Assembly: GCA_963744145.1 (NCBI GenBank)
Contig: CAVUSO010000001.1
Span: forward strand, 5,184,001-5,248,000
Length of the DNA: 64,000 nt
Direction of reading: 5' to 3'
DNA from: an uncultured cyanobacterium
Lineage (GTDB): Bacteria > Cyanobacteriota > Cyanobacteriia > Cyanobacteriales > CAWUOF01
The notes below the pieces were generated by a model, which ran no database searches, had not been told where the DNA came from, and saw only the letters and a program-made list of their open reading frames with translations. Of the stretch, positions 4,906-55,266 are shown piece by piece (position 1 is the stretch's first letter; every line of letters begins with the position of its first letter). The position numbers and the translations under genes are program-made.

Positions 4906-4987
4906 GGGTCGATGCCCGAGTGGTTAATGGGGGCGGACTGTAAATCCGCTGGCTACGCCTACGCTGGTTCAAATCCAGCTCGGCCCA
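4906..4987 (+). tRNA. trnY: tRNA-Tyr(GTA)
   Basis: GGGTCGATGCCCGAGTGGTTAA...CTGTAAA anticodon loop, long variable arm, GGTTCAAATCC T-arm; CCA not encoded. Confidence 0.96.
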
Positions 4988-5000
4988 TACCCACACTCAT

Positions 5001-5072
5001 GCCCGTGTAGCTTAGTGGTAGAGCACACCCTTGGTAAGGGTGAGGTCACGAGTTCAATCCTCGTCACGGGCT
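5001..5072 (+). tRNA. trnT: tRNA-Thr(GGT)
   Basis: GCCCGTGTAGCTTAGTGGTAGAGC...TTGGTAA anticodon loop...GAGTTCAATCCTC; the usual Tyr-Thr pair. Confidence 0.96.
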
Positions 5073-25808: not shown

Positions 25809-28544
25809 ATGACCGTAACCAAACCAACCCTTGCTAGTCAATACGACCCATTTACCACTGAAGCCAAGTGGCAAAAGTTTTGGGAAGAAAACCAGACTTT
25901 TAAAGCTAATCCAGAAAGCGGTGGTGAGCCTTACTGTATCGTCATTCCCCCCCCGAACGTCACCGGTAGCTTACACATGGGACACGCTTTGGAAATGTCC
26001 TTAATTGACGCGACGATCCGCTATCGGCGGATGCGGGGGTATAATACACTCTGCCTACCCGGAACTGACCATGCTAGTATAGCTGTCCAAACCCTGCTGG
26101 AAAAAGAATTAAAAAAACAGGGTAAAACTCGCTATGATATCGGACGAGAAAAATTTTTAGAACTGGCTTGGGACTGGAAAGCTGAATCGGGAAACACAAT
26201 TGTGAATCAGCTGCGACGTTTAGGGGTTTCCGTAGATTGGTCGCGAGAACGCTTCACTATGGATGAAGGATTATCGAAAGCAGTCTTAGAATCCTTTGTC
26301 CGTCTCTATGAAGAAGGGCTGATTTATCGTGGTGAATATTTGGTAAATTGGTGCCCAGCTTCCCAATCGGCAGTTTCAGATGTAGAAGTAGATAACCAAG
26401 AAGTTAATGGACATCTATGGCATTTACGCTATCCTCTTATTGATGGTTCAGGTCATTTAGAAGTAGCGACCACCCGACCAGAAACTATGTTAGGCGATAC
26501 AGCGATCGCTGTGCATCCAAATGACGATCGCTATCAACACTTAATTGGCAAAAAAGCCTTGTTGCCGATTATGAATCGGGAGATCATCATTATTGGTGAT
26601 GAATTAGTTGATCCCAAATTTGGCACTGGCTGTGTAAAAGTGACTCCCGCCCATGACCCGAATGATTTTGATATGGGTGTACGTCACCATTTGCCATTGA
26701 TCAATATTATGAATAAGGATGGCACTTTAAATGAAAATGCCGGGCCATTTATCGGTCAAGATCGATTTGTAGCACGTAAAAATATTGTTAAACTTCTGGA
26801 ACAAGAAGGTGTGCTAGTGAAGGTAGAAGAATATAAACATACGGTGCCCTACAGCGATCGCGGCAAAGTTCCGGTCGAACCGTTACTTTCTACCCAATGG
26901 TTTGTTAAGATCCGTCCCCTAGCCGATCAAGCCTTGCAATTTTTAGACGAACAAAATTCCCCTGTCTTTGTGCCAGAACGCTGGTCAAAAACTTATCGTG
27001 ACTGGTTAGTTAAACTAAAAGATTGGTGTATTTCTCGTCAACTCTGGTGGGGACATCAAATTCCCGCTTGGTATGTAGTCAGTGAAACTGGGGGTCAAAT
27101 TACAGAGCGCACCCCTTTTGTGGTAGCTCGCACGACCACCGAAGCTGAAGCAAAAGCTAAAGCTCAATTTGGCGAAAAGATCAAGCTCGAACAAGATCCA
27201 GATGTACTTGATACTTGGTTTTCTTCGGGCTTATGGCCATTTTCGACCTTGGGATGGCCCGAACAAACCTTAGAGCTAAAAACCTACTACCCTACTAATA
27301 CAATGGTAACAGGGTTTGACATCATCTTTTTCTGGGTAGCACGTATGACCATGATGGCTGGGCATTTTACCAAACAAATACCCTTCCAAGATGTTTATAT
27401 TCATGGATTAGTTTTGGATGAAAACGGTCAAAAAATGTCCAAAACTAAGGGGAATGGGATTGATCCCTTGGTGCTAATCGATAAGTATGGTACTGATGCG
27501 TTACGTTATACTCTAGTCAAGGAAGTAGCTGGGGCGGGTCAAGATATTCGCTTAGAATATAATCGGGAAAAGCATGAATCATTATCAGTAGAAGCAGCAA
27601 GGAATTTTACTAATAAACTCTGGAATGCGGCTCGGTTTGTGATGATGAACCTAGATGGACAAACACCGCAACAGTTAGGACAAGCGGAGCTAACCACATC
27701 TGAATTATGCGATCGCTGGATTCTGTCGCGCTATGAGCAAGTAGTACAGCAAACCTGTAAATATATTGATAATTACGGTTTAGGAGAAGCAGCGAAAGGA
27801 TTGTATGAGTTTATTTGGGGTGATTTCTGCGATTGGTACATTGAGTTGGTAAAACCACGGCTCCAATTAGAAATCTCTAGTCCATCTAGACGCTCAGTCC
27901 AGCAAATTTTAGCTGTGATTCTGGAGGGGATATTAAAACTACTCCATCCCTTCATGCCCCATATTACCGAAGAAATCTGGCAAACTCTAACCTTAGCACC
28001 TGTCGGTGCTACACTATCTCTCCAATCCTATCCCCAGGCAGAAATATCCCTCATTGATTCTGATTTAGAAGCAAAATTTCAATTCTTAATCGATCTAATT
28101 CGCACAATTCGGAATTTACGAGTGGAAGCAGAGGTAAAACCTGGGGCAAAGATCAGGCTAGTTTTGCAAACGGAAAGTGAATCAGAGCAAGAGATTATTA
28201 CCTCTGGACGGGGATACATTGAAAATCTAGTGAAAGTAGAACAATTAACGATTACTCGAATTTTAGAACCAGAAATAGAGCCGGCGATCGCTGGAGTTGT
28301 AGGTACAGTCCAAGTGTTAATTCCCCTAGCAGGAGTGGTAGATATTAGCGCAAGACGTACCAAATTAGAAAAAAGCTTGAGTAAGGTAGAAGCAGAAGCT
28401 AATACCCTTTCGAGTCGTCTGGGCAATTCCAAATTTGTGAATAATGCTCCAGTCGAGGTGGTGCAAGCAGCACAAGCTGCTCTAGTAGAAGCCCAAAAAC
28501 AGGTGGAAATTTTGCGCGAGCAACTCAGCCGATTGGCTGGTTGA
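25809..28544 (+). CDS. valS: Valine-tRNA ligase
   Basis: [31 protein letters not shown]-terminal coiled coil. Confidence 0.97.
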
Positions 28545-28759
28545 TCAAGAATAGTTTACCGCCCAGATTGGTCTGATTAGTTAATTACTAATCATGATTA
28601 ACCGCAAAAGAGAGAAGCTCACATATTTAAAAAGTCAGGTTCTCTCTCGATTTCACCGCTGATTGAGCATCGTTAAAACCTAATATTTCCAACTGGAAAT
28701 AAATTATTTTAGCGATAATTCAATCCTTCCTTATACCTTAAATTCCGAGCAAAAAGGCG

Positions 28760-29434
28760 ATGTTATATTTAGCCCAGGTGCAAAAGAAAGGATTCTTAGG
28801 CAAACCTGCCGTGCGGTTGCTGGCTAGTCAAAAATCTGAAAATAACTGGGTTATTGTGACAGAGGAAAAAGTCGTTGAATGTCCACAAGCTACGACTTTT
28901 AGTGAAGGATTGCTGGTTTTAGCAGATGTTAATAATAATCGCCCAATTGTGATTAAAGATGCTACAGATTGGCTAGTGGATTTGGTAAAAAAATATCTGA
29001 CTGAAGATGCGACATCCCCTTTTTGGCAAGCTGAAAAAGAAAGAGCAGAACAATGGAGACAATCTTTAACTTTGCAAAGTCAAGATTTGGGTCGTCGTGC
29101 GATTGAAATTGAAGCACTACGGGAAAAAAATCAAGTTTTAGCAGATGAATTGAAAACTGAGAAAAAAGAAATTGATCAGATGACGCGATCGCTAAACATG
29201 AAACGTCAGGAAATAGAGCGTCTGGATGGAGAGTTCAAAGAACGAGAAAGAAAAGCGAGAGAGATTCTGAGTGCCCAAATGCAGGAAGTTAAACGTCAGA
29301 TTGAAGAAACTGAACGGTTGAGAAGTCGCAATAAACTATTAGAAGAAGAACTGCAACAATTAAAAAGTCAGCAATTAGAAAAAGTATCCAGATGGGAGCG
29401 TGAACCAGAACCACTTGATCCTTTTCAAACTTAA
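28760..29434 (+). CDS. Coiled-coil protein with HmpF-like N-terminus
   Basis: MLYLAQVQKK..LLASQ..LVL...EQWRQSLTLQSQDL.RR..EIEA pattern. Confidence 0.55.
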   Translation: MLYLAQVQKKGFLGKPAVRLLASQKSENNWVIVTEEKVVECPQATTFSEGLLVLADVNNNRPIVIKDATDWLVDLVKKYLTEDATSPFWQAEKERAEQWRQSLTLQSQDLGRRAIEIEALREKNQVLADELKTEKKEIDQMTRSLNMKRQEIERLDGEFKERERKAREILSAQMQEVKRQIEETERLRSRNKLLEEELQQLKSQQLEKVSRWEREPEPLDPFQT

Positions 29435-29566
29435 GCGTAGTTTTTACCTAATCAAGAATAGATAATCTAGAATATTAGCTGAGTTTCTAGTCATAGCAGC
29501 GAGGACAAGAATTATTGTAGGATAAAATAAACCTTAGTCTTTTCCTTAACTACGATTCACCTGAAT

Positions 29567-29941
29567 ATGATCAGCATTACATCGATAGAAATTGCTCAAT
29601 ATCGTTCTGAATTGTCCAATTATCCCCGCGCTTTACAAGCTTTGGATCTGATTGAAGATTGTGAGGGAGATTTGGAAGATGCAGCGATCGCAATGGCAAT
29701 TCAAGTGGGACAGGAACCGGATACATCTAATAATTGGTTAGAGGGATTAGCAAAAAGATGTCGGGTTGCGATTTGTGAAAAAGATTTGAGGGAAGATTTG
29801 TTAAATGGTAAATTAAGTACAGCGATCGCACATTTACAAACGACAAATCTTTGTCCTCCAATTTTAGCAACCCCTGTAGTTATTTATGCTGTTAAGACGG
29901 GAATCAATGATTTTTGTGAGCCTTTAGAGTTTAAACTGTAA
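29567..29941 (+). CDS. Conserved cyanobacterial hypothetical protein
   Basis: ALDLIEDCEGDLEDAA...ATPVVIY...FC pattern. Confidence 0.7.
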   Translation: MISITSIEIAQYRSELSNYPRALQALDLIEDCEGDLEDAAIAMAIQVGQEPDTSNNWLEGLAKRCRVAICEKDLREDLLNGKLSTAIAHLQTTNLCPPILATPVVIYAVKTGINDFCEPLEFKL

Positions 29942-29963
29942 AGACTCGCATTGTGTAGTTTTG

Positions 29964-31565
29964 TTACACTTCATCCATTGCTAACATCTGAATCAGACGG
30001 GGTGTTCCTGGATCAAACCCAGCAATATCCCAAGATTTTGGATCTTTTGGATCAACTAAGGAGATATTGTAGGGAGCAAGTGCAATATAAATTGCTTTGG
30101 CATGGGGATTGATTTTATGGCGATATTCTGCTAAAGCTTGACTAGGATGTTTCTTTCCTGCCCAACTTTCACAATCAGTCCAAAAGCAAAATAGATCTGC
30201 TTTAAACTTGGTTTTAATTGCCCAATCGTAAGCGACAGATGCGTCAGTTCCACCGAAATTCTGGTTACTGGCTTTGGCGATCGCTTGACTAAAAGAATCC
30301 TGTGCGGTAATCTTTAAATCACGGAAATCAGTAGCAAAACCACGAATGACATAATTTTTTTCTGCTTTCGCAGTTGCTAAAGCCATGACGGTAGCAATTT
30401 CGCAACAAGTTAAGCCAATGGAACTAACAGTATTAAAGGACATGGAACCGGAAATATCAACAGCGTGTAAGAAAGTTTTCCCGGTTGGAGGAAGTACATC
30501 AAAAGCTAGTTCTAAGGCTTTCTCTAAGATATCAATAATCTGCCGAATTGGTTGCCAAGTTTTTTTACTCCGACCTAATTCTCCTCCTGATTGATAGGTT
30601 TTGATAGCTTTCAAGATGTCAATCGGATGAATCCGTCCTTTCTGTAAATGTTCCCGACTATTGAGTAACTTAGCAATACGCTTCAAATTAGACTGATGAT
30701 GAGTAGTTAAAACCTCTAATTGTGTTAATGATCCAAGATTTCGCAGCATCGCACCAATGGGCATTTCATTAAACAGCAATTGCCATGCTTTTTGATCCAT
30801 TTTACCTACAGGTGCAGCCATTTCATGGGTTAATCTTCCTTTCGCGATCGCTTCATGAGTTTTTTCTGGATGACGTTTTAACCATTCATACCACCAAATT
30901 TGTGCTAAGGGTTCAGCTGGAATTTTAGAGGGTAATTTATCCCATCCGTGCATTACCCACTTAAACAATTGATTATGGGTTTCAGTGATAGGTTTCACAT
31001 GAAATAAGCGCAACGCATCACGATGGGAAAAACCTTGACGTTGTTGGTATTTCAACAATTGATAAGCTAATTCTTGCACATTATCACGGGAAAACCAAGC
31101 TTTACCAGCTTCACGTACAATTTTACCAAAACCACGCATGGCTTTAGTGTAACCTAGCCATTCATAGAAATGACTACCAGTTCGTACTACTTGCAGAAAG
31201 ATTTCTCCAAAAGCTTGTTTAGCTTCTTGGGAATTGTCCATTGATAACAACACTAACGCAAATAAAGGGGCACTATTATTAATTGCGCGTCCATCACTAG
31301 CATAGAGAATTTCGGTAGCAACTTGGTTCGGATTAAGAGCGATCGCTTGTTTGAGGATTTCGACAAATTCGATCGTTAACTCATGTTTACCTGCATAATA
31401 GGTATTTTGAGCTGTACCAATTAACAAACAACGACGTAATACATTCCAAATATCAGCTTTAAACATCCAACCACCAGAACGTCCTGGAACCATTTCTGTT
31501 TCTCGACCAGGAATTGGTTGAGTCTGGGGGGTTTGATTTTTTACAAAAAACTTATAATTCATCAT
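29964..31565 (-). CDS. rsr: Ro60/Rsr TROVE-vWA RNA-binding protein
   Basis: KYQQRQGFSHRDALRLFHVKP, AMLRNLG, RIHP, vWA MIDAS DISGSM, GGTD, WTDCE. Confidence 0.92.
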   Translation of the reverse strand: MMNYKFFVKNQTPQTQPIPGRETEMVPGRSGGWMFKADIWNVLRRCLLIGTAQNTYYAGKHELTIEFVEILKQAIALNPNQVATEILYASDGRAINNSAPLFALVLLSMDNSQEAKQAFGEIFLQVVRTGSHFYEWLGYTKAMRGFGKIVREAGKAWFSRDNVQELAYQLLKYQQRQGFSHRDALRLFHVKPITETHNQLFKWVMHGWDKLPSKIPAEPLAQIWWYEWLKRHPEKTHEAIAKGRLTHEMAAPVGKMDQKAWQLLFNEMPIGAMLRNLGSLTQLEVLTTHHQSNLKRIAKLLNSREHLQKGRIHPIDILKAIKTYQSGGELGRSKKTWQPIRQIIDILEKALELAFDVLPPTGKTFLHAVDISGSMSFNTVSSIGLTCCEIATVMALATAKAEKNYVIRGFATDFRDLKITAQDSFSQAIAKASNQNFGGTDASVAYDWAIKTKFKADLFCFWTDCESWAGKKHPSQALAEYRHKINPHAKAIYIALAPYNISLVDPKDPKSWDIAGFDPGTPRLIQMLAMDEV

Positions 31566-31604
31566 AATTTTCAGCCCGTCAGGACAATTAAAAGTGTGGT
31601 AATA

Positions 31605-31732
31605 TGGTGTAGTGGAGCGGGAATTGCACCCGCATCTCGTCGATTAAGGGGGATGTCGTGTTACAGCGATAATCCTCAATCTGCGTCCCTTTCGGGCAAA
31701 AATTGCGCTTTACTATTAAGCTACCCACCACA
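31605..31732 (-). ncRNA. tRNA-like (Y RNA-related) RNA upstream of rsr
   Basis: Minus strand: acceptor GUGGUGGG/UCCACUAC-A-CCA, UA, D-arm GCUU-AAUAGUA-AAGC, about 70-nt structured insert replacing the anticodon arm, T-arm GCGGG-UGCAAUU-CCCGC. Confidence 0.8.
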
Positions 31733-31808
31733 TAAAAGGTACTTTTGACTTGTTACTGGTTTATTGTTTCTGTTGGTCTCCTTTGCTTTGATGAATCCAG
31801 ATTAAGCT

Positions 31809-31932
31809 GGTCAACTTCCCTGAAGCTAATTGTGCAAAAAAAAGCTAAAATCCATTGATAATTACTGTTTGAGACCTAGGGGAAGATCCTTGACTAGGGG
31901 ATTCCCTCAACTTTCTGATAACTTTTATAGGT
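31809..31932. repeat. 124-bp direct repeat, copy 1 (divergent promoter region)
   Basis: Matches 32794-32917; contains TCAACTT(T/C)C(C)TGA twice and CTAGGGGA twice. Confidence 0.9.
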
Positions 31933-32015
31933 CAATACTTTGGACACTTTTACGGTAAATCTAGAAACAACTGGTAGAGAGACTGGAATACTCAAGCTAT
32001 TTACTCATTAAAGCG

Positions 32016-32509
32016 ATGAAAGTACAGGTTTTATCTATTAAAGCGGCAAAAGAGCCTAACTCCCATGAAGTCTTGTTGTCTATCGGTGTAGATCAGCAAA
32101 CTTTCATATTTACAACTGAAGTTAATCAAGTGGGAGAACATCAAATTCAAACGACTCATGGCGATCGCACTTTTTCAGAAGTATTCAGATTTAATCAGCG
32201 AGTAGCAATGAATGTGAGTAATCTGGTAGTTAAATTTTCCAGCCAACAAATAATTGAATTGCCAGCCGACGTCGGTAATTTTGTCACTCCGGAAGAAACT
32301 GTATCGAAGCTAAAATCTTATGAAAAGGGTAAGCCAATTCAGAGTGATCTGCAAGATAAACAAAAAGTTACGTTATATCTGTCGCCAAGAACTGCATCAC
32401 CGACTCAAAATTCGAGCTGCGGTTGGCTCAGAACCAATATCTGTCATTGCTGAACGTGCGCTGATCTTTTATATGGAACATCCAGAAATAGTAGATGAAG
32501 CCGGCAATA
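32016..32509 (+). pseudogene. Hypothetical domain fused to RHH-like domain; frameshifted and MITE-truncated
   Basis: KQKVTLYLSP in one frame continues as ELHHRLKIRAAVGSEPISVIAERAL in another; extra A at 32387/8. Confidence 0.7.
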
Positions 32510-32686
32510 CAGCGGATTCCACGTTGATGAAGTTATCTCGTTTGGTTGGGCGGGTTTATGATGGTGATCGATTTGGATCAGAATTGATTGGTGAACCCGC
32601 CCCTACAAATCCTGGTTGATTGTCATCATAAATTCATCGATTTTTTGGTAAATAATCCCAGATCCGAACATTTTTATCACCTGTAG
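32510..32686. repeat. Partial MITE/REP, CAGCGGAT-end family, copy 3
   Basis: TA-CAGCGGATT start and GGGCGGGTTTATG...GAACCCGCCCCTAC, as at 12088 and 19572. Confidence 0.7.
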
Positions 32687-32793
32687 ATATTGTTTTAGCT
32701 TTTCAACCTCCATCAGTAAGACTGTTTACTGAATTTGCGTTAGCGTAGCTTACCGTAGGTATCGCCTAAATCTAGATCACTTTAGGAAAAGCG

Positions 32794-32917
32794 GGTCAAC
32801 TTTCCTGAAGCCAATTGTGCAAAAAAAAGCTAAAATCCATTCATAATTACTATTTGAAAGCTAGGGGAAGATCCTTGACTAGGGGATTCCCTCAACTTTC
32901 TGAAAACTTTGATAGGT
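32794..32917. repeat. 124-bp direct repeat, copy 2
   Basis: Matches 31809-31932; ends 14 bp before the NACHT start. Confidence 0.9.
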
Positions 32918-32931
32918 AGATTTTGCTCTAA

Positions 32932-35793
32932 GTGGTACGTCCCAGTTATGGTCCTGAAGCGAAGAAACGCTCTAAACAGTTATTGGCTGTGTTGCTTGAC
33001 TATGCCAATGATGAGTTAAACTGTGATGAATCTACTCTAGATGCTTTACGTCCCCAGATTCAAGTATATTGGCAAACTGAACAGAGATTAATTGTTCGCA
33101 CTAAGATCCGTTTTTTAGAGACTCTGACTAAATTAGGTACAGATTCTCTACTGAGTGGAGAACAGATTAAGGAAGCACTACGACGGTTTGAGGATTTTTT
33201 AGAGATTCTGGAAGATCATCGTCCCAACCGTGGTGGGTCAGAAATTTGGCACTTTACACTTAATTTATGGTATAAGCGCAGTCATCCTATTGCTAACTTA
33301 GAACGATTTGAGCAGGAGTGGGAGCAACGTCGTCCCCAAAAATCTAAACAGGTAACAGGAGATCAAAGTGAGCAAGTACAGAATAATTTTTGGTGGGAAC
33401 TCTGTCGGGAGAGTTTAGAATTACAGGATTATCAACGGTTAACTACTAATGTGCTGACTGTTCCTGATGGAGTTGCGTTTGATTTGCATGAAGTTTATAT
33501 ACCATTGAAGTTGGTAGAAAGAAAACAGCAAGATCGGCGATCGGTAGATATTTCTGCGGAGCAAGGATCACAGTTTTATGAACCGGAAGAACTAGAAACA
33601 GCTCTAAGTTTAACGATCGCAGAGTTTTGTCAGCGATTTTTCCAATCTGAACTTAAACAACGGATTGCGATCGTCGGGGAACCTGGTTCAGGTAAAACTA
33701 CTTTGCTCCAAAAAATTGCTACTTGGTTACTTGAACATCAAGTTTTACCAATCTGGATTTCTCTTGCTGATCTGCAAGGATCTACTTTAGAACATTATCT
33801 ATTAAATGACTGGCTGAAACAAGCTACTCACAAAATCCGTGTTTCGGAAGAACTTCAGGAAGGTTTAGCTCAACAATTCCATCTAGGTAAGGTTTGGTTA
33901 TTACTCGATGCGGTTGATGAAATGGCTGATGATGCTAGTATGGCACTTAGTATGATTGCGCGTCAATTGCGAGGATGGGTTGGAGATGGGAATGTGGTGC
34001 TTACTTGTCGGTTGAATGTGTGGGATCATGGTAAAAATGCTCTTCATAGTTTTACTACCTATCGAAATCTTAGTTTTAGTTATGGTGATACTCGCGATCG
34101 CGATCAAGTTGGTGCATTTATTCAGCGTTGGTTTTCGTCTCGTCCTGAATTTGCCGATCGCTTACATCTGGAGCTAAATAAAATTGAACGAAAGCGGATT
34201 AAAGATACTGTAAAAAATCCGCTCCGATTAGCATTATTATGTCGGACTTGGTCTTTAGCTCAAGGGAATTTACCTAATACTAAAGCTACTCTCTATCAGC
34301 AATTTGTGGAAACCATTTATGAATGGAAACAGGATCGCTTTCCCACTACTCCTGCTCAACGACAGCAATTAAATCAGGTTTTGGGAAAACTAGCTCTTTT
34401 TGCTTTAGAACAACCGGAAATTAAATTTAGATTAAGTTATTCTTTTTTACAACAAGCATTTGCTGAGTCTCTTGAATTAATTCCCTTAGCATTACAATTA
34501 GGTTGGTTAAATCAGGTAGGTATTGCTGCTAATTCTGGTGAAAAAGTGTATGCTTTTTATCACCCAACCTTTCAGGAATATTTTGCAGCTCAAACAATTA
34601 CAGATTGGCATTTTTTCTTTGATCCTAAGCATAATTATCCCATTTTTAGTCAACCTTGGCAAGAGGTAATTTTCCTCTGGTTGGGACGAAGTGATGTTTC
34701 CGTAATCGATAAAGAAGCTTTTTTACAAGCATTAACAGAGTTTGATGATCAATGTGGTGGTTTTTATGCTGTTCGAGCTTATTTTATTGCAGCAGTAGGA
34801 TTAGCGGAATTTCCCCATTATAGCAAAGCAGAAATAATTTTATCACAATTAATTGATTGGCGTTTTGCTGTACATAGATCGTCAAAGTTTGGTGCAATCC
34901 CACTTTCAGAAGATGCAAGAATTGCTTTACTTAAGACTGATCGAAGTTTAGCAATTTTAGGTTTAGAAAAATTCATTAGTTCCGTTTCCCATCCTTTTAT
35001 AATTTGGAACGCAGCTTATACACTTGGTCGAGCGTTAGATCCAGGGAATTTAGTCGCGATCGCTGCTTTAATTCGGTTACTGGATATCATTCAATCGGAA
35101 CCTTTGCGTTTACAGATTAGTGAACATTTGGGGAAAGTTGATCCTGGTAATGCGATCGCAATTGCTACTCTTGTGAGTATAATTGAATCAGCTTCTTCCT
35201 TATCTATCTGTCGGAAAGCAGCTTATAGTCTGGGAAAAATCTGTCCAGAACATCCCTTAGCGATCGCAACTTTGGAACGTTTGGTTGCTACTACTGATCT
35301 TAGTTTCAAAAGACAAGTCATCGAAAATTTACTGACATTAGATCCAGGAAATGTAATCGCGATCGCAGTTCGAGAAACCATTAAAAATACCCGACCGCAA
35401 ACCAGTCAGAAACGACCAAAGAAATATGCAGATACAATTAGTATAGCACAAACCATCAAAATATTAGAAAACAAATTAGATACTGTCAAAGATCCAGATA
35501 ATCTTAGACGAATTGCTTACCGTCTTGGTAATTTACAACCTGGACATTCTCAAGCAATCGAAATTTTAATTAGACTACTAACATCAGCAAATTCGTCAGG
35601 ATTCCATAAACAAGTGAGTGAAAATCTCAAAGAGATCATCACCGATGAGCAATTGAGTGAAATCGTTAGTAAACTCAAACCAGGAGTAAATCAAGATGGA
35701 ATAGCTTCCAGCGATCGAGAATCTGATAAAATGCTATGGTATTGCGCTCAAAGAATGACTTATGATCGTTTTTATCAAGCATGGAATGGATAA
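32932..35793 (+). CDS. NACHT (STAND) NTPase with N-terminal putative wHTH-like domain and C-terminal HEAT repeats
   Basis: GEPGSGKT, LLLDAVDE, LTCR, NPLRLALL, FYHPTFQEYFAA, repeated AAY.LG..DPGN..AI. Confidence 0.9.
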   Translation: MVRPSYGPEAKKRSKQLLAVLLDYANDELNCDESTLDALRPQIQVYWQTEQRLIVRTKIRFLETLTKLGTDSLLSGEQIKEALRRFEDFLEILEDHRPNRGGSEIWHFTLNLWYKRSHPIANLERFEQEWEQRRPQKSKQVTGDQSEQVQNNFWWELCRESLELQDYQRLTTNVLTVPDGVAFDLHEVYIPLKLVERKQQDRRSVDISAEQGSQFYEPEELETALSLTIAEFCQRFFQSELKQRIAIVGEPGSGKTTLLQKIATWLLEHQVLPIWISLADLQGSTLEHYLLNDWLKQATHKIRVSEELQEGLAQQFHLGKVWLLLDAVDEMADDASMALSMIARQLRGWVGDGNVVLTCRLNVWDHGKNALHSFTTYRNLSFSYGDTRDRDQVGAFIQRWFSSRPEFADRLHLELNKIERKRIKDTVKNPLRLALLCRTWSLAQGNLPNTKATLYQQFVETIYEWKQDRFPTTPAQRQQLNQVLGKLALFALEQPEIKFRLSYSFLQQAFAESLELIPLALQLGWLNQVGIAANSGEKVYAFYHPTFQEYFAAQTITDWHFFFDPKHNYPIFSQPWQEVIFLWLGRSDVSVIDKEAFLQALTEFDDQCGGFYAVRAYFIAAVGLAEFPHYSKAEIILSQLIDWRFAVHRSSKFGAIPLSEDARIALLKTDRSLAILGLEKFISSVSHPFIIWNAAYTLGRALDPGNLVAIAALIRLLDIIQSEPLRLQISEHLGKVDPGNAIAIATLVSIIESASSLSICRKAAYSLGKICPEHPLAIATLERLVATTDLSFKRQVIENLLTLDPGNVIAIAVRETIKNTRPQTSQKRPKKYADTISIAQTIKILENKLDTVKDPDNLRRIAYRLGNLQPGHSQAIEILIRLLTSANSSGFHKQVSENLKEIITDEQLSEIVSKLKPGVNQDGIASSDRESDKMLWYCAQRMTYDRFYQAWNG

Positions 35794-35805
35794 CTAATAG
35801 TTGCA

Positions 35806-36276
35806 ATGAAATACCATAAAAATCATCCTCAACCAAGCTCCGACAATTTGATCCTTATTATTGGATATGGTAACGACTTACGAAGTGACGATGGAGTAGG
35901 ACAAAAAATAGCAAACCAGATCCAAAATTGGCAAATTCCTCACATCCAATCGATCGCACTACATCAACTAACCCCTGAATTAGCTGAAACTATATCGGAA
36001 GTTAAAAAAGTTATTTTTATCGATGTATATCCAGCTTCAGAAGGAGCTAAAATTCAAATTCAAAACCTTGAACCAACTAACATGAGAGACAAAATTGGAC
36101 ATATCAGTGATCCGCGATCGCTACTAGCACTTTGTCAAGCACTATACAATCATCTCCCTGAAGCTTGGATGATTGCAATTCCTGGAGTTAACTTTGACTT
36201 CGGTGAAATTCTTTCACCAACTACTGAACAGGGAATGAATGAAGCACTAGCAGCAATTGACAAATTAATTAAATAA
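35806..36276 (+). CDS. hoxW: Hydrogenase maturation protease (HoxW-like)
   Basis: IIGYGNDLRSDDGVG, HQLTPELA, VIFID, GH..DP, F.FGE.LS. Confidence 0.8.
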   Translation: MKYHKNHPQPSSDNLILIIGYGNDLRSDDGVGQKIANQIQNWQIPHIQSIALHQLTPELAETISEVKKVIFIDVYPASEGAKIQIQNLEPTNMRDKIGHISDPRSLLALCQALYNHLPEAWMIAIPGVNFDFGEILSPTTEQGMNEALAAIDKLIK

Positions 36277-54976: not shown

Positions 54977-55215
54977 TCGATGCAATTATTTCTAGTTCCT
55001 GTAATATGGTGCGGGTCCGAAAAATCAATACGCATCCAGCATGACAAAAAAACTCTCATTCAATTTCTGGGTGACTTGTCCTCGACCTAACCTCCAGGTA
55101 AAAGCAGGTTGATCTTCGGTGCTATCTGTGACTGTTGGGTCCCTAGCTGCTCTTCACTGCTCACGAATAGAATTTCTTTTCCGAAATGAAGGCGATCGCT
55201 TCTGATGTATCTAAA

Positions 55216-55266
55216 AGTAGATGTACCCTGATTTCCCTAACCCCCACGGTTAGGGTATTTTTTTTT
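55216..55266 (+). ncRNA. NsiR1-like small RNA, copy 2
   Basis: AGTAGATGTACCCTGAT, CCCTAACC/GGTTAGGG hairpin, T-run; TCCGAA 38 bp upstream of the TAG. Confidence 0.55.

Follow-up and report, generated by a model that had tools for sequence, protein, structure and literature searches.

By what means might a bacterium match its level of Rsr, the bacterial Ro60 protein, to its Y RNAs? We know of no such mechanism, and the question is raised by the rsr locus in a stretch of 64,000 nucleotides (nt) from an uncultured cyanobacterium of the Cyanobacteriales (GenBank assembly GCA_963744145.1, contig CAVUSO010000001.1, positions 5,184,001 to 5,248,000), hereafter the window, whose own coordinates are used throughout. 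A tRNA-like unit (31733-31605) stands there upstream of rsr, both on the minus strand, with a gap of 39 nt between the CCA of the unit and the AUG of the gene. The original prediction on this DNA proposed that the leader segment 31704-31563 folds into a long hairpin that competes with the tRNA-like cloverleaf and hides the rsr start until tRNA-like processing frees the mRNA. Our alignments showed that two local hairpins of this leader are conserved and covarying structures, and that the long-range pairings between them are not. The best overall explanation, which we consider probable, is that a Y RNA in tRNA order is followed by a helix before rsr that mimics its Ro-binding site and would serve as an operator for Rsr.

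Two copies of one bulged helix and the proposed long hairpin

The product of rsr matches the Pfam families vWA_Ro60 (7.9e-41) and TROVE (1.4e-18), and the second AUG of the gene (31562) aligns with the start codon of orthologues in the N-terminus alignment. The segment of the proposed hairpin comprises the 3' three-quarters of the tRNA-like gene together with the 39-nt spacer to the rsr start codon. The following features bear on its folding:

29964..31565, minus strand: rsr (bacterial Ro60, Rsr), 533 amino acids (aa), delimited from the list of open reading frames (ORFs), Pfam and the N-termini of orthologues.
31684..31699, minus strand: helix copy 1, UUG-CCC-GAAA-GGG-A-CG, a loop-capped bulged helix whose local pairs covary in the alignments A1 and A3 described below.
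31571..31587, minus strand: helix copy 2, the pre-start hairpin UUG-UCC-UGAC-GGG-C-U-GA, which ends 5 nt before the AUG at 31565.
31693..31704, minus strand: 5' strand of the proposed outer long-range helix (AAUUUUUGCCCG), overlapping copy 1.
31566..31578, minus strand: 3' strand of the proposed outer helix (CGGGCUGAAAAUU), overlapping copy 2 and the place of the Shine-Dalgarno sequence in orthologues.
31594..31600, minus strand: ACCACAC, aligned with GCCACC of the last unit in alignment A2.

A scan of one genome per species returned 315 stretches encoding Rsr relatives, and the best 80, all of them cyanobacterial, were kept. Among these 80 of 315, one to seven units lie upstream of rsr per locus, arrays of several units being found in most loci, and the units share the core UUGCCY-loop-RGGMCGA-N-GAAUUGAGGGUUAUCG. 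Both helix copies take the form GGNC[N]GR over UUGNCC, and a common consensus, UUG-YCY-loop-RGG-M-YGR, describes units and pre-start hairpins.

Local and long-range pairings were compared in alignment A3, which holds 28 leaders from the last unit to the start codon. The local pairs were 98.8% paired, with a covariation of 0.325 against 0.199 in shuffled alignments (0 of 500 shuffles as high), and four of them had changed on both sides. The cross pairs between the two copies were 91.1% paired, a value reached by 95 of 500 shuffles; their covariation was 0.207 against 0.190 (108 of 500 as high), and cross pair 72:157 was unpaired in 11 of the 28 leaders. In addition, both hairpins could be parsed in 64 loci, with 16 skipped; the parser demands an intact local 3-bp core, so that the intactness of this core in the 64 loci is circular and was not counted as evidence. 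The inner cross helix was broken by a mismatch in 37 of the 64 loci, and the outer one, broken in 4, was held mostly by G:U pairs. In the partition function the outer cross helix exceeded a pairing probability (P) of 0.3 in 3 of the 64 loci and the local pre-start hairpin exceeded 0.5 in 59, and GNRA tetraloops capped 49 of the unit hairpins and 47 of the pre-start hairpins. A two-fold RNA switch would keep both of its alternative helices conserved or covarying; here the cross pairs stood at the level of shuffles, and the long-range fold did not prove to be conserved in orthologous leaders. The conserved competitor of the cloverleaf that the original prediction envisaged was thus not found.

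The complementarity behind it is real. The bases of 31704-31693 and 31578-31566 match with one bulge, as had been claimed. The outer long-range helix is made of the 5' arm of copy 1 and the 3' arm of copy 2, its bulge being the motif's own bulge, and the nested GGGAC:GUCCU helix is made of the 3' arm of copy 1 and the 5' arm of copy 2; this duplication of a motif thus accounts for the GC cores of the long hairpin, for the UU/GA beside them and for its one bulge. What the window adds of its own is about five A:U pairs (AAUUU with AAAUU). The CAAUU(U) before the small hairpin is common to units of the window's kind (type A), and by a rough estimate the chance of five such pairs in A/U-rich sequence is ~1%. 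The A/U extension reaching the AUG was found only in the window, where GAAAAUU replaces the GGAGG or GGGAG of orthologues. Anatomically, the long hairpin is in all likelihood a by-product of motif duplication, with two copies that each fold locally, and the observation can be explained in this way without the proposed switch, which the comparison did not support. As a general caution, wherever a hairpin motif occurs twice, its copies can be paired with each other into an alternative long-range fold that looks convincing.

The repeat after the CCA that had been noticed as a second UACCACA exists at 31600-31594, the closest loci carry an extra unit at this position, and the repeat is probably what is left of a second unit that was lost, namely of its acceptor 3' strand. 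Among 60 genomes searched, no relative with the one-unit layout of the window was found (6 of 61 genomes matched, including the window's own), and the best other match, genome G025, has ~120 nt more between unit and rsr. In its nearest relatives a second unit stands between the two copies, and the window seems to have lost it.

How the window's own leader folded depended on where the RNA was cut. RNAfold on 31704-31563, which omits the 5' acceptor strand and the D arm, formed the outer helix 31704-31693/31578-31566 with one bulge as well as GGGAC:GUCCU (31689-31685 with 31585-31581), at -38.6 kcal/mol (z -3.3, 0 of 200 shuffles as good); this z-score came mostly from the T arm and the local hairpin 31681-31642. 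The nested helix of the original prediction stood only in this GGGAC:GUCCU part: GAUUGAGG, which had been assigned to UUUUAAUU, paired locally with CCUUAAUC (31681-31674/31649-31642, P 0.89-0.97), and the GAUUGAGG:UUUUAAUU alternative would require four G:U pairs. For the whole unit (31740-31555) the minimum free energy (MFE) structure was the cloverleaf with two local hairpins (-44.5 kcal/mol, z -0.8, 41 of 200 shuffles as good). Over 28 choices of 5' and 3' ends, the P of the outer helix ran from 0.00 to 0.99, and it was 0.06 in the fold context used across loci. Because P swings with the chosen ends, thermodynamics gives no robust call on the long hairpin; folding of the full leader produces it with some ends only.

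It is very improbable, in our judgment, that the long hairpin acts as a switch in this organism, extending over 31704-31566 and possibly into codons 3-6, hiding the start and offering bulged helices until processing frees the mRNA. The structure does form in silico: with 10 nt more than the whole unit (31740-31545) it becomes the MFE structure at P 0.45-0.55, and P reaches 0.99 for 3' ends at 31520-31500. Loss of the second unit brought the copies within ~100 nt, and the local pre-start hairpin of the window is weak when taken alone (4 bp, -4.3 kcal/mol, 55 of 200 shuffles as good). The window also has no Shine-Dalgarno sequence, so that occlusion by the local hairpin is less obvious than in orthologues. 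With other ends P falls to 0.0-0.1, the cross pairs and the inner helix fare across loci as given above, the extra A:U pairs are confined to the window, and the long hairpin has to compete with a cloverleaf that is backed by secondary-structure and D-loop/T-loop covariation. If the long hairpin has a role at all, it would be one limited to this lineage, for which the weak local hairpin, the missing Shine-Dalgarno sequence and the apparent loss of the second unit leave some small room.

The tRNA-like Y RNA unit

The two local copies differ in their setting, the first being part of the unit, whose elements are as follows:

31605..31733, minus strand: tRNA-like Y RNA unit, type A, in normal tRNA order, from the Rfam tRNA match and alignment A1.
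31732-31724 with 31616-31608, minus strand: acceptor helix, followed by the encoded CCA at 31607-31605.
31707..31721, minus strand: D arm; pair 21:31 of A1 is UA in 13 and CG in 12 sequences.
31617..31633, minus strand: T arm GCGGG-UGCAAUU-CCCGC, with compensatory changes at A1 119:131 and 120:130 and P >0.99.
31642..31681, minus strand: local hairpin GAUUGAGG...CCUUAAUC with an inner UCG/CGA stem, in a variable-arm-like position, with P 0.89-0.97 and conserved pairs in A1.

Upstream of rsr, the sole RNA match in Rfam was tRNA (RF00005) at 31730-31609, with 33.8 bits against a gathering threshold of 29. The unit has 66 nt in place of the 15 anticodon-arm positions of this model, it has no anticodon stem with a 7-nt loop able to decode, and ARAGORN called no tRNA in it. 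The YrlA model RF02553 (gathering threshold 69 bits) gave no match at E up to 1 in 27000-36000. Like YrlA, the unit has tRNA-like D and T arms, as indicated by the Rfam alignment and by covariation in both arms, and lies within 4 kb of rsr on the same strand; its strand order is not that of YrlA and runs acceptor 5', D, Ro hairpin, T, acceptor 3' and CCA. The window's GACGCAG is one mismatch away from the GNCGAA(N0-1)G of YrlA, and orthologous units read GACGAAG, GCCGAAG or GCCGACG. The unit is single-copy in its own genome by BLASTN.

Alignment A1 comprises 25 type-A units, namely the window's and 24 full-length copies from 22 loci. RNAalifold found 30 pairs, 9 with compensatory changes, which form the acceptor, the D arm, the 3-bp hairpin, the larger local hairpin and the T arm; the compensatory changes lie in the acceptor, D, small hairpin and T helices, and conservation ends exactly at ACACCA. 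Furthermore, the D-loop dinucleotide co-varies with the second T-loop base in 23 of the 25 units. A D-loop GG goes with a T-loop UUC or UUU in 8 units with one exception, and AG, CG or UG goes with UGC in 15, again with one exception; the window combines AG with UGC, that is, it has no U at the psi55 position. When paired to the upstream D-arm side, as in a tRNA, the acceptor strands were 7/7 complementary in 158 of 180 T arms, and when paired to the downstream D arm, as in YrlA, in only 15 of 128. Ten such units were scored by Rfam as tRNA in normal order. Taken together, the D-loop/T-loop co-variation, the acceptor complementarity and these ten scores argue for a real tRNA-like fold that ends at the acceptor stem. 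The window in particular is unreadable in YrlA order, because it has a single unit and no D arm after the T arm.

Copy 1 occupies the anticodon-loop position of this fold, where the A1 column pair 49:54 is CG in 15, UA in 7 and UG in 3 units, and it adjoins GAUUGAGGAUUAUCG, a match to the GGUUAUCG block in the rows of the published YrlA alignment. Chen et al. (2014; PMC4201824) note a likeness between the YrlA motif and GGUCCGA, a sequence that X. laevis Ro60 contacts and that can pair into a bulged helix with 3' residues. In six distant genomes of this phylum (loci L105-L110), whose Rsr is ~33% identical, open-ended Y RNAs lie beside rsr, one or two per locus and 66-105 nt long, with a terminal stem 5'-..GGGC[C]GG..UUUGCCC..-3' that is the helix of the two copies with its strands in the opposite order. 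From this match and the resemblance to GGUCCGA, we infer that the bulged helix is an Rsr-binding module closed by a loop. In the same group, the Y RNA of L107 contains the T-arm-like GGGGUUCGAGUCCCC, and the Y RNA stem of L105 is followed by a U run, terminator-like.

The cyanobacterial units would accordingly be circular permutations of YrlA. In the parts of Chen et al. (2014; PMC4201824) that deal with cyanobacteria, YrlA is modelled in the permuted order with a longer acceptor stem and with undetermined ends, and the long-acceptor model recurs in the corresponding part of Wang et al. (2018; bioRxiv 10.1101/312249). Chen et al. also list the rsr of Nostoc punctiforme ATCC 29133, a tractable cyanobacterium with this locus, as Npun_F0915. 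We suggest that these models are misregistered and that the RNAs are better described as tandem tRNA-ordered units with the Ro helix at the anticodon position. The order of the units changes which RNA species to look for, and it raises the question of RNase P, the CCA enzyme or even AlaRS acting on them.

The published order has a consequence for the pre-start hairpin, which could then be the 3' strand of a further Y RNA of the YrlA/YrlB order, its Ro stem being formed over a long range, with GGGMCGA in the last unit as one strand and UUGYCC ahead of rsr as the other. This order underlies the predictions of cyanobacterial YrlA published by Chen et al. (2014; PMC4201824), who also place YrlB of Mycobacterium smegmatis between YrlA and rsr, with a possible T arm inside. 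Such a stem would be identical with the inner cross helix, which most of the parsed loci break and which lacks pair 72:157 in the A3 leaders counted above; GNRA loops cap the local hairpins, and the acceptor strands match in tRNA order only. We regard this arrangement as extremely unlikely and keep to a tRNA-ordered unit with a separate hairpin before rsr.

The acceptor helix has one further feature. The third pair from the A-CCA 3' end is a G:U wobble in 23 of the 25 units (A1 10:139, in the helix 31724-31732/31608-31616 of the window), and it is GC only in the two units without CCA. G3:U70 together with A73 makes up the identity elements for alanine in tRNA-Ala and transfer-messenger RNA (tmRNA).

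The pre-start hairpin as a candidate operator

Among the best 80 of the 315 stretches, 79 rsr loci could be assessed, and 72 of these have a hairpin right in front of the ribosome-binding site. Alignment A2 holds 73 sequences; 8 of the 80 loci were left out, namely L053 (N-terminus off the contig), L006, L011 and L012 (no motif before the start), L003, L008, L009 and L033. Of all A2 cells, 96.9% were paired, and the closing pair was CG in 44, UA in 10 and UG in 4 sequences. An even sample of the phylum, in which 23 of 201 genomes had a vWA_Ro60 match, gave a similar picture: besides the window's own, the hairpin was clear in 14 and variant in 2 of 16 oxygenic-type rsr loci. UUG was kept in 60 of the 64 parsed pre-start hairpins. 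The helix ends 5-13 nt before the start codon, exactly 11 nt in 49 of 64, and the GGGAG or GGAGG begins with its last G residues, so that it overlaps or abuts the ribosome-binding site. It keeps this place even where the nearest unit is distant or where none lies within 330 nt (L005, L015, L027, L028 and L113). In L047, L001 and L020 a local stem-loop of -12.7 to -15.2 kcal/mol extends over the Shine-Dalgarno sequence, and helix 140-144 with 167-171 of A3 pairs this sequence in orthologues. The idea that the leader presents a Ro-type bulged helix was therefore supported in a changed form for most cyanobacterial rsr loci, where the helix is a local, loop-capped copy before the ribosome-binding site; what did not stand was its long-range form.

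These findings are compatible with a feedback by mimicry. The helix copy on the mRNA would be an operator that mimics the Y RNA; the shared consensus makes it a copy of the presumed RNA ligand of the protein, and Rsr would bind it as it would bind the unit. Rsr that is free of Y RNA would occupy the operator helix and, since this helix abuts or overlaps the ribosome-binding site, bound Rsr would block initiation or mark the mRNA for decay. The abundance of Y RNA would in this way set the synthesis of Rsr by competition. Most simply, the Y RNA and rsr would be one transcript from which tRNA-processing enzymes excise the unit; co-transcription and release of the mRNA by tRNA-like processing are plausible. 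The CCA of the unit lies only 39 nt before the AUG of rsr, no terminator-like site was found, and a scan of the minus strand from 31400 to 32100 for sigma-70 promoters flagged no site. Taken alone, the feedback at the rsr leader seems to us an open possibility, at a little less than even confidence. The fuller version, in which Rsr limits itself through an operator that competes with CCA-processed, permuted-YrlA Y RNAs of the same transcript, perhaps chargeable with alanine through G3:U70 and A73 like tmRNA, is tentative and on balance doubtful. A look-alike of the Y RNA on the ribosome-binding site of rsr, kept across cyanobacterial orders, nonetheless offers a simple and directly testable feedback hypothesis.

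Several observations weigh against an operator, in addition to the weak fold and the lacking Shine-Dalgarno sequence of the window and to the long hairpin being its predicted MFE structure for some transcript ends. First, 7 of the 79 loci have no hairpin next to rsr. Second, a pre-start hairpin is missing from the other rsr gene of this genome, so the element is not obligatory. Third, the covariation of the pre-start hairpin comes mainly from one closing pair, and many of the sequences are close kin. Fourth, a genome-wide search for TTGYCCN{3,6}GGGMYGR gave 10 matches in the 7.7-Mb genome, where the reversed control gave 7, and thus showed no enrichment; the motif alone thus carries little information, and the idea of a genome-wide regulon was dropped for the same reason.

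The exceptional loci vary in kind. In L003 the hairpin lies ~45 nt upstream, in L033 there is none, and in L008, L009 and L011 it stands before a small ORF inserted ahead of rsr. This inserted ORF (about 2300-2490) has ~59 codons, begins MFNYT..., has a hydrophobic middle and lies between the hairpin with its Shine-Dalgarno sequence and rsr.

The second rsr gene lies elsewhere in the same genome (L129, G000:C1:7519800-7524000, minus strand, ~2330-1980) and was recognized by a vWA_Ro60 match. Two tRNA-like units precede it, the last ending in CCCA with an AUGAUG start 4 nt later, and there is no Shine-Dalgarno sequence; RF02553 reached only 23.8 bits at this locus, spanning the two units. A cut at this CCA would yield a nearly leaderless mRNA, reminiscent of tRNA punctuation.

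Two other roles for the pre-start hairpin have to be weighed. The hairpin might serve in processing or stability without being sensed by Rsr, either as a protective 5' stem-loop or as a nuclease entry site, and resemble the Y helix only by descent from a unit. It does lie at the boundary between Y RNA array and mRNA, and in M. smegmatis a single precursor gives rise to YrlA and YrlB, both of which are encoded upstream of rsr (Chen et al. 2014; PMC4201824). Features that stability would not need are kept here as they are in the Y RNA stems, including the UUG, the bulge and the G:U and A:U pairs, and the spacing to the start codon is fixed; we therefore rate this role as unlikely.

Alternatively, the hairpin and the pyrimidine tract upstream of it might make up a stem-loop of a generic kind in which the Shine-Dalgarno sequence is hidden, such as a thermometer or attenuator that works without protein. 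RNAalifold on the 28 leaders pairs CUUUC or CCUUC with GGGAG or GGAGG around the hairpin, and the stable local folds of L047, L001 and L020 fit such a role. This outer helix is nearly without compensatory change (one cell), the window has a weak fold and no Shine-Dalgarno sequence to mask, and the identity with the Y RNA helix would be left unexplained, which makes a protein-free element most unlikely in our view.

Two further observations concern the expression of rsr. In Nostocales (L036-L079), many Nostoc-type leaders read GGGAGAUGAAGCGAUGAAU from -9 to +4 of rsr and thereby contain a three-codon upstream ORF, AUG AAG CGA UGA, whose stop overlaps the rsr AUG; this may reflect translational coupling or chance. 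Upstream of the first unit by ~55-95 nt, a block at 31786-31826 (minus strand) is kept in 8 of 9 aligned loci and reads GGGAAG(A/U)UGA..C(U/C)UA(A/U)UCUGGAUUCAUCAAAG. It holds a -10-like hexamer, TAATCT/TATTCT (31804-31799), and an imperfect inverted repeat, and is probably the promoter or an operator of the Y RNA-rsr transcript, its promoter-like character having been judged by eye only.

Neighboring features and relation to known systems

On the plus strand, a 76-codon ORF with a TTG start (31518-31748) runs antisense over the Y RNA unit; it was taken as spurious, as conservation there appears to follow the pattern of a paired RNA. Upstream of the Y RNA and rsr on the opposite strand, 32932-35793 (plus) encodes a 953-aa EAD4-NACHT STAND NTPase. 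The window further contains valS at 25809-28544 (plus), two ordinary tRNA genes at 4906-5072 (plus) and a match to the NsiR1 small RNA at 55215-55264 (plus) that is barely at threshold (39.3 against 39 bits).

Full-text literature searches, with most subscription journals outside their coverage, returned nothing on Rsr autoregulation or on a hairpin in the rsr leader, and on cyanobacterial Y RNAs they returned only Chen et al. (2014) and Wang et al. (2018). Among the known systems, YrlA and YrlB of Salmonella Typhimurium and M. smegmatis (RF02553) are the closest, as all lie just upstream of rsr on the same strand and have tRNA-like D and T arms. The units share with the published YrlA rows (PMC4201824) a GG-N-CGA motif, which the window's unit has with the one mismatch given above, and the GGUUAUCG block comes after it in both. 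The two differ in what is open and what is closed: YrlA has a closed acceptor loop and an open Ro stem, whereas the unit has an open acceptor helix of 8-9 bp with an encoded CCA and a Ro helix closed by a loop. Vertebrate Y RNAs, Yrn1 and Yrn2 of D. radiodurans and the open-ended Y RNAs of L105-L110 have the same bulged helix, which is formed there by the 5' and 3' ends of the RNA; here a tetraloop links its strands in the reverse order, in the tRNA-like RNA as well as on the rsr mRNA.

When counted from the D arm, the acceptor helix of the unit is 1-2 pairs longer than that of a tRNA. The type-A units keep a G:U third pair and an A-CCA end as the acceptors of tRNA-Ala and tmRNA do, and unlike these the Y RNA unit has neither an anticodon nor an mRNA-like part. 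Finally, the operators of ribosomal proteins and the tRNA-like thrS operator of E. coli are translational operators that mimic the RNA ligand of the protein. The rsr leader likewise appears to hold a copy of the presumed binding site at the ribosome-binding site of the protein's own mRNA, through which Rsr would repress its synthesis as those proteins repress theirs.

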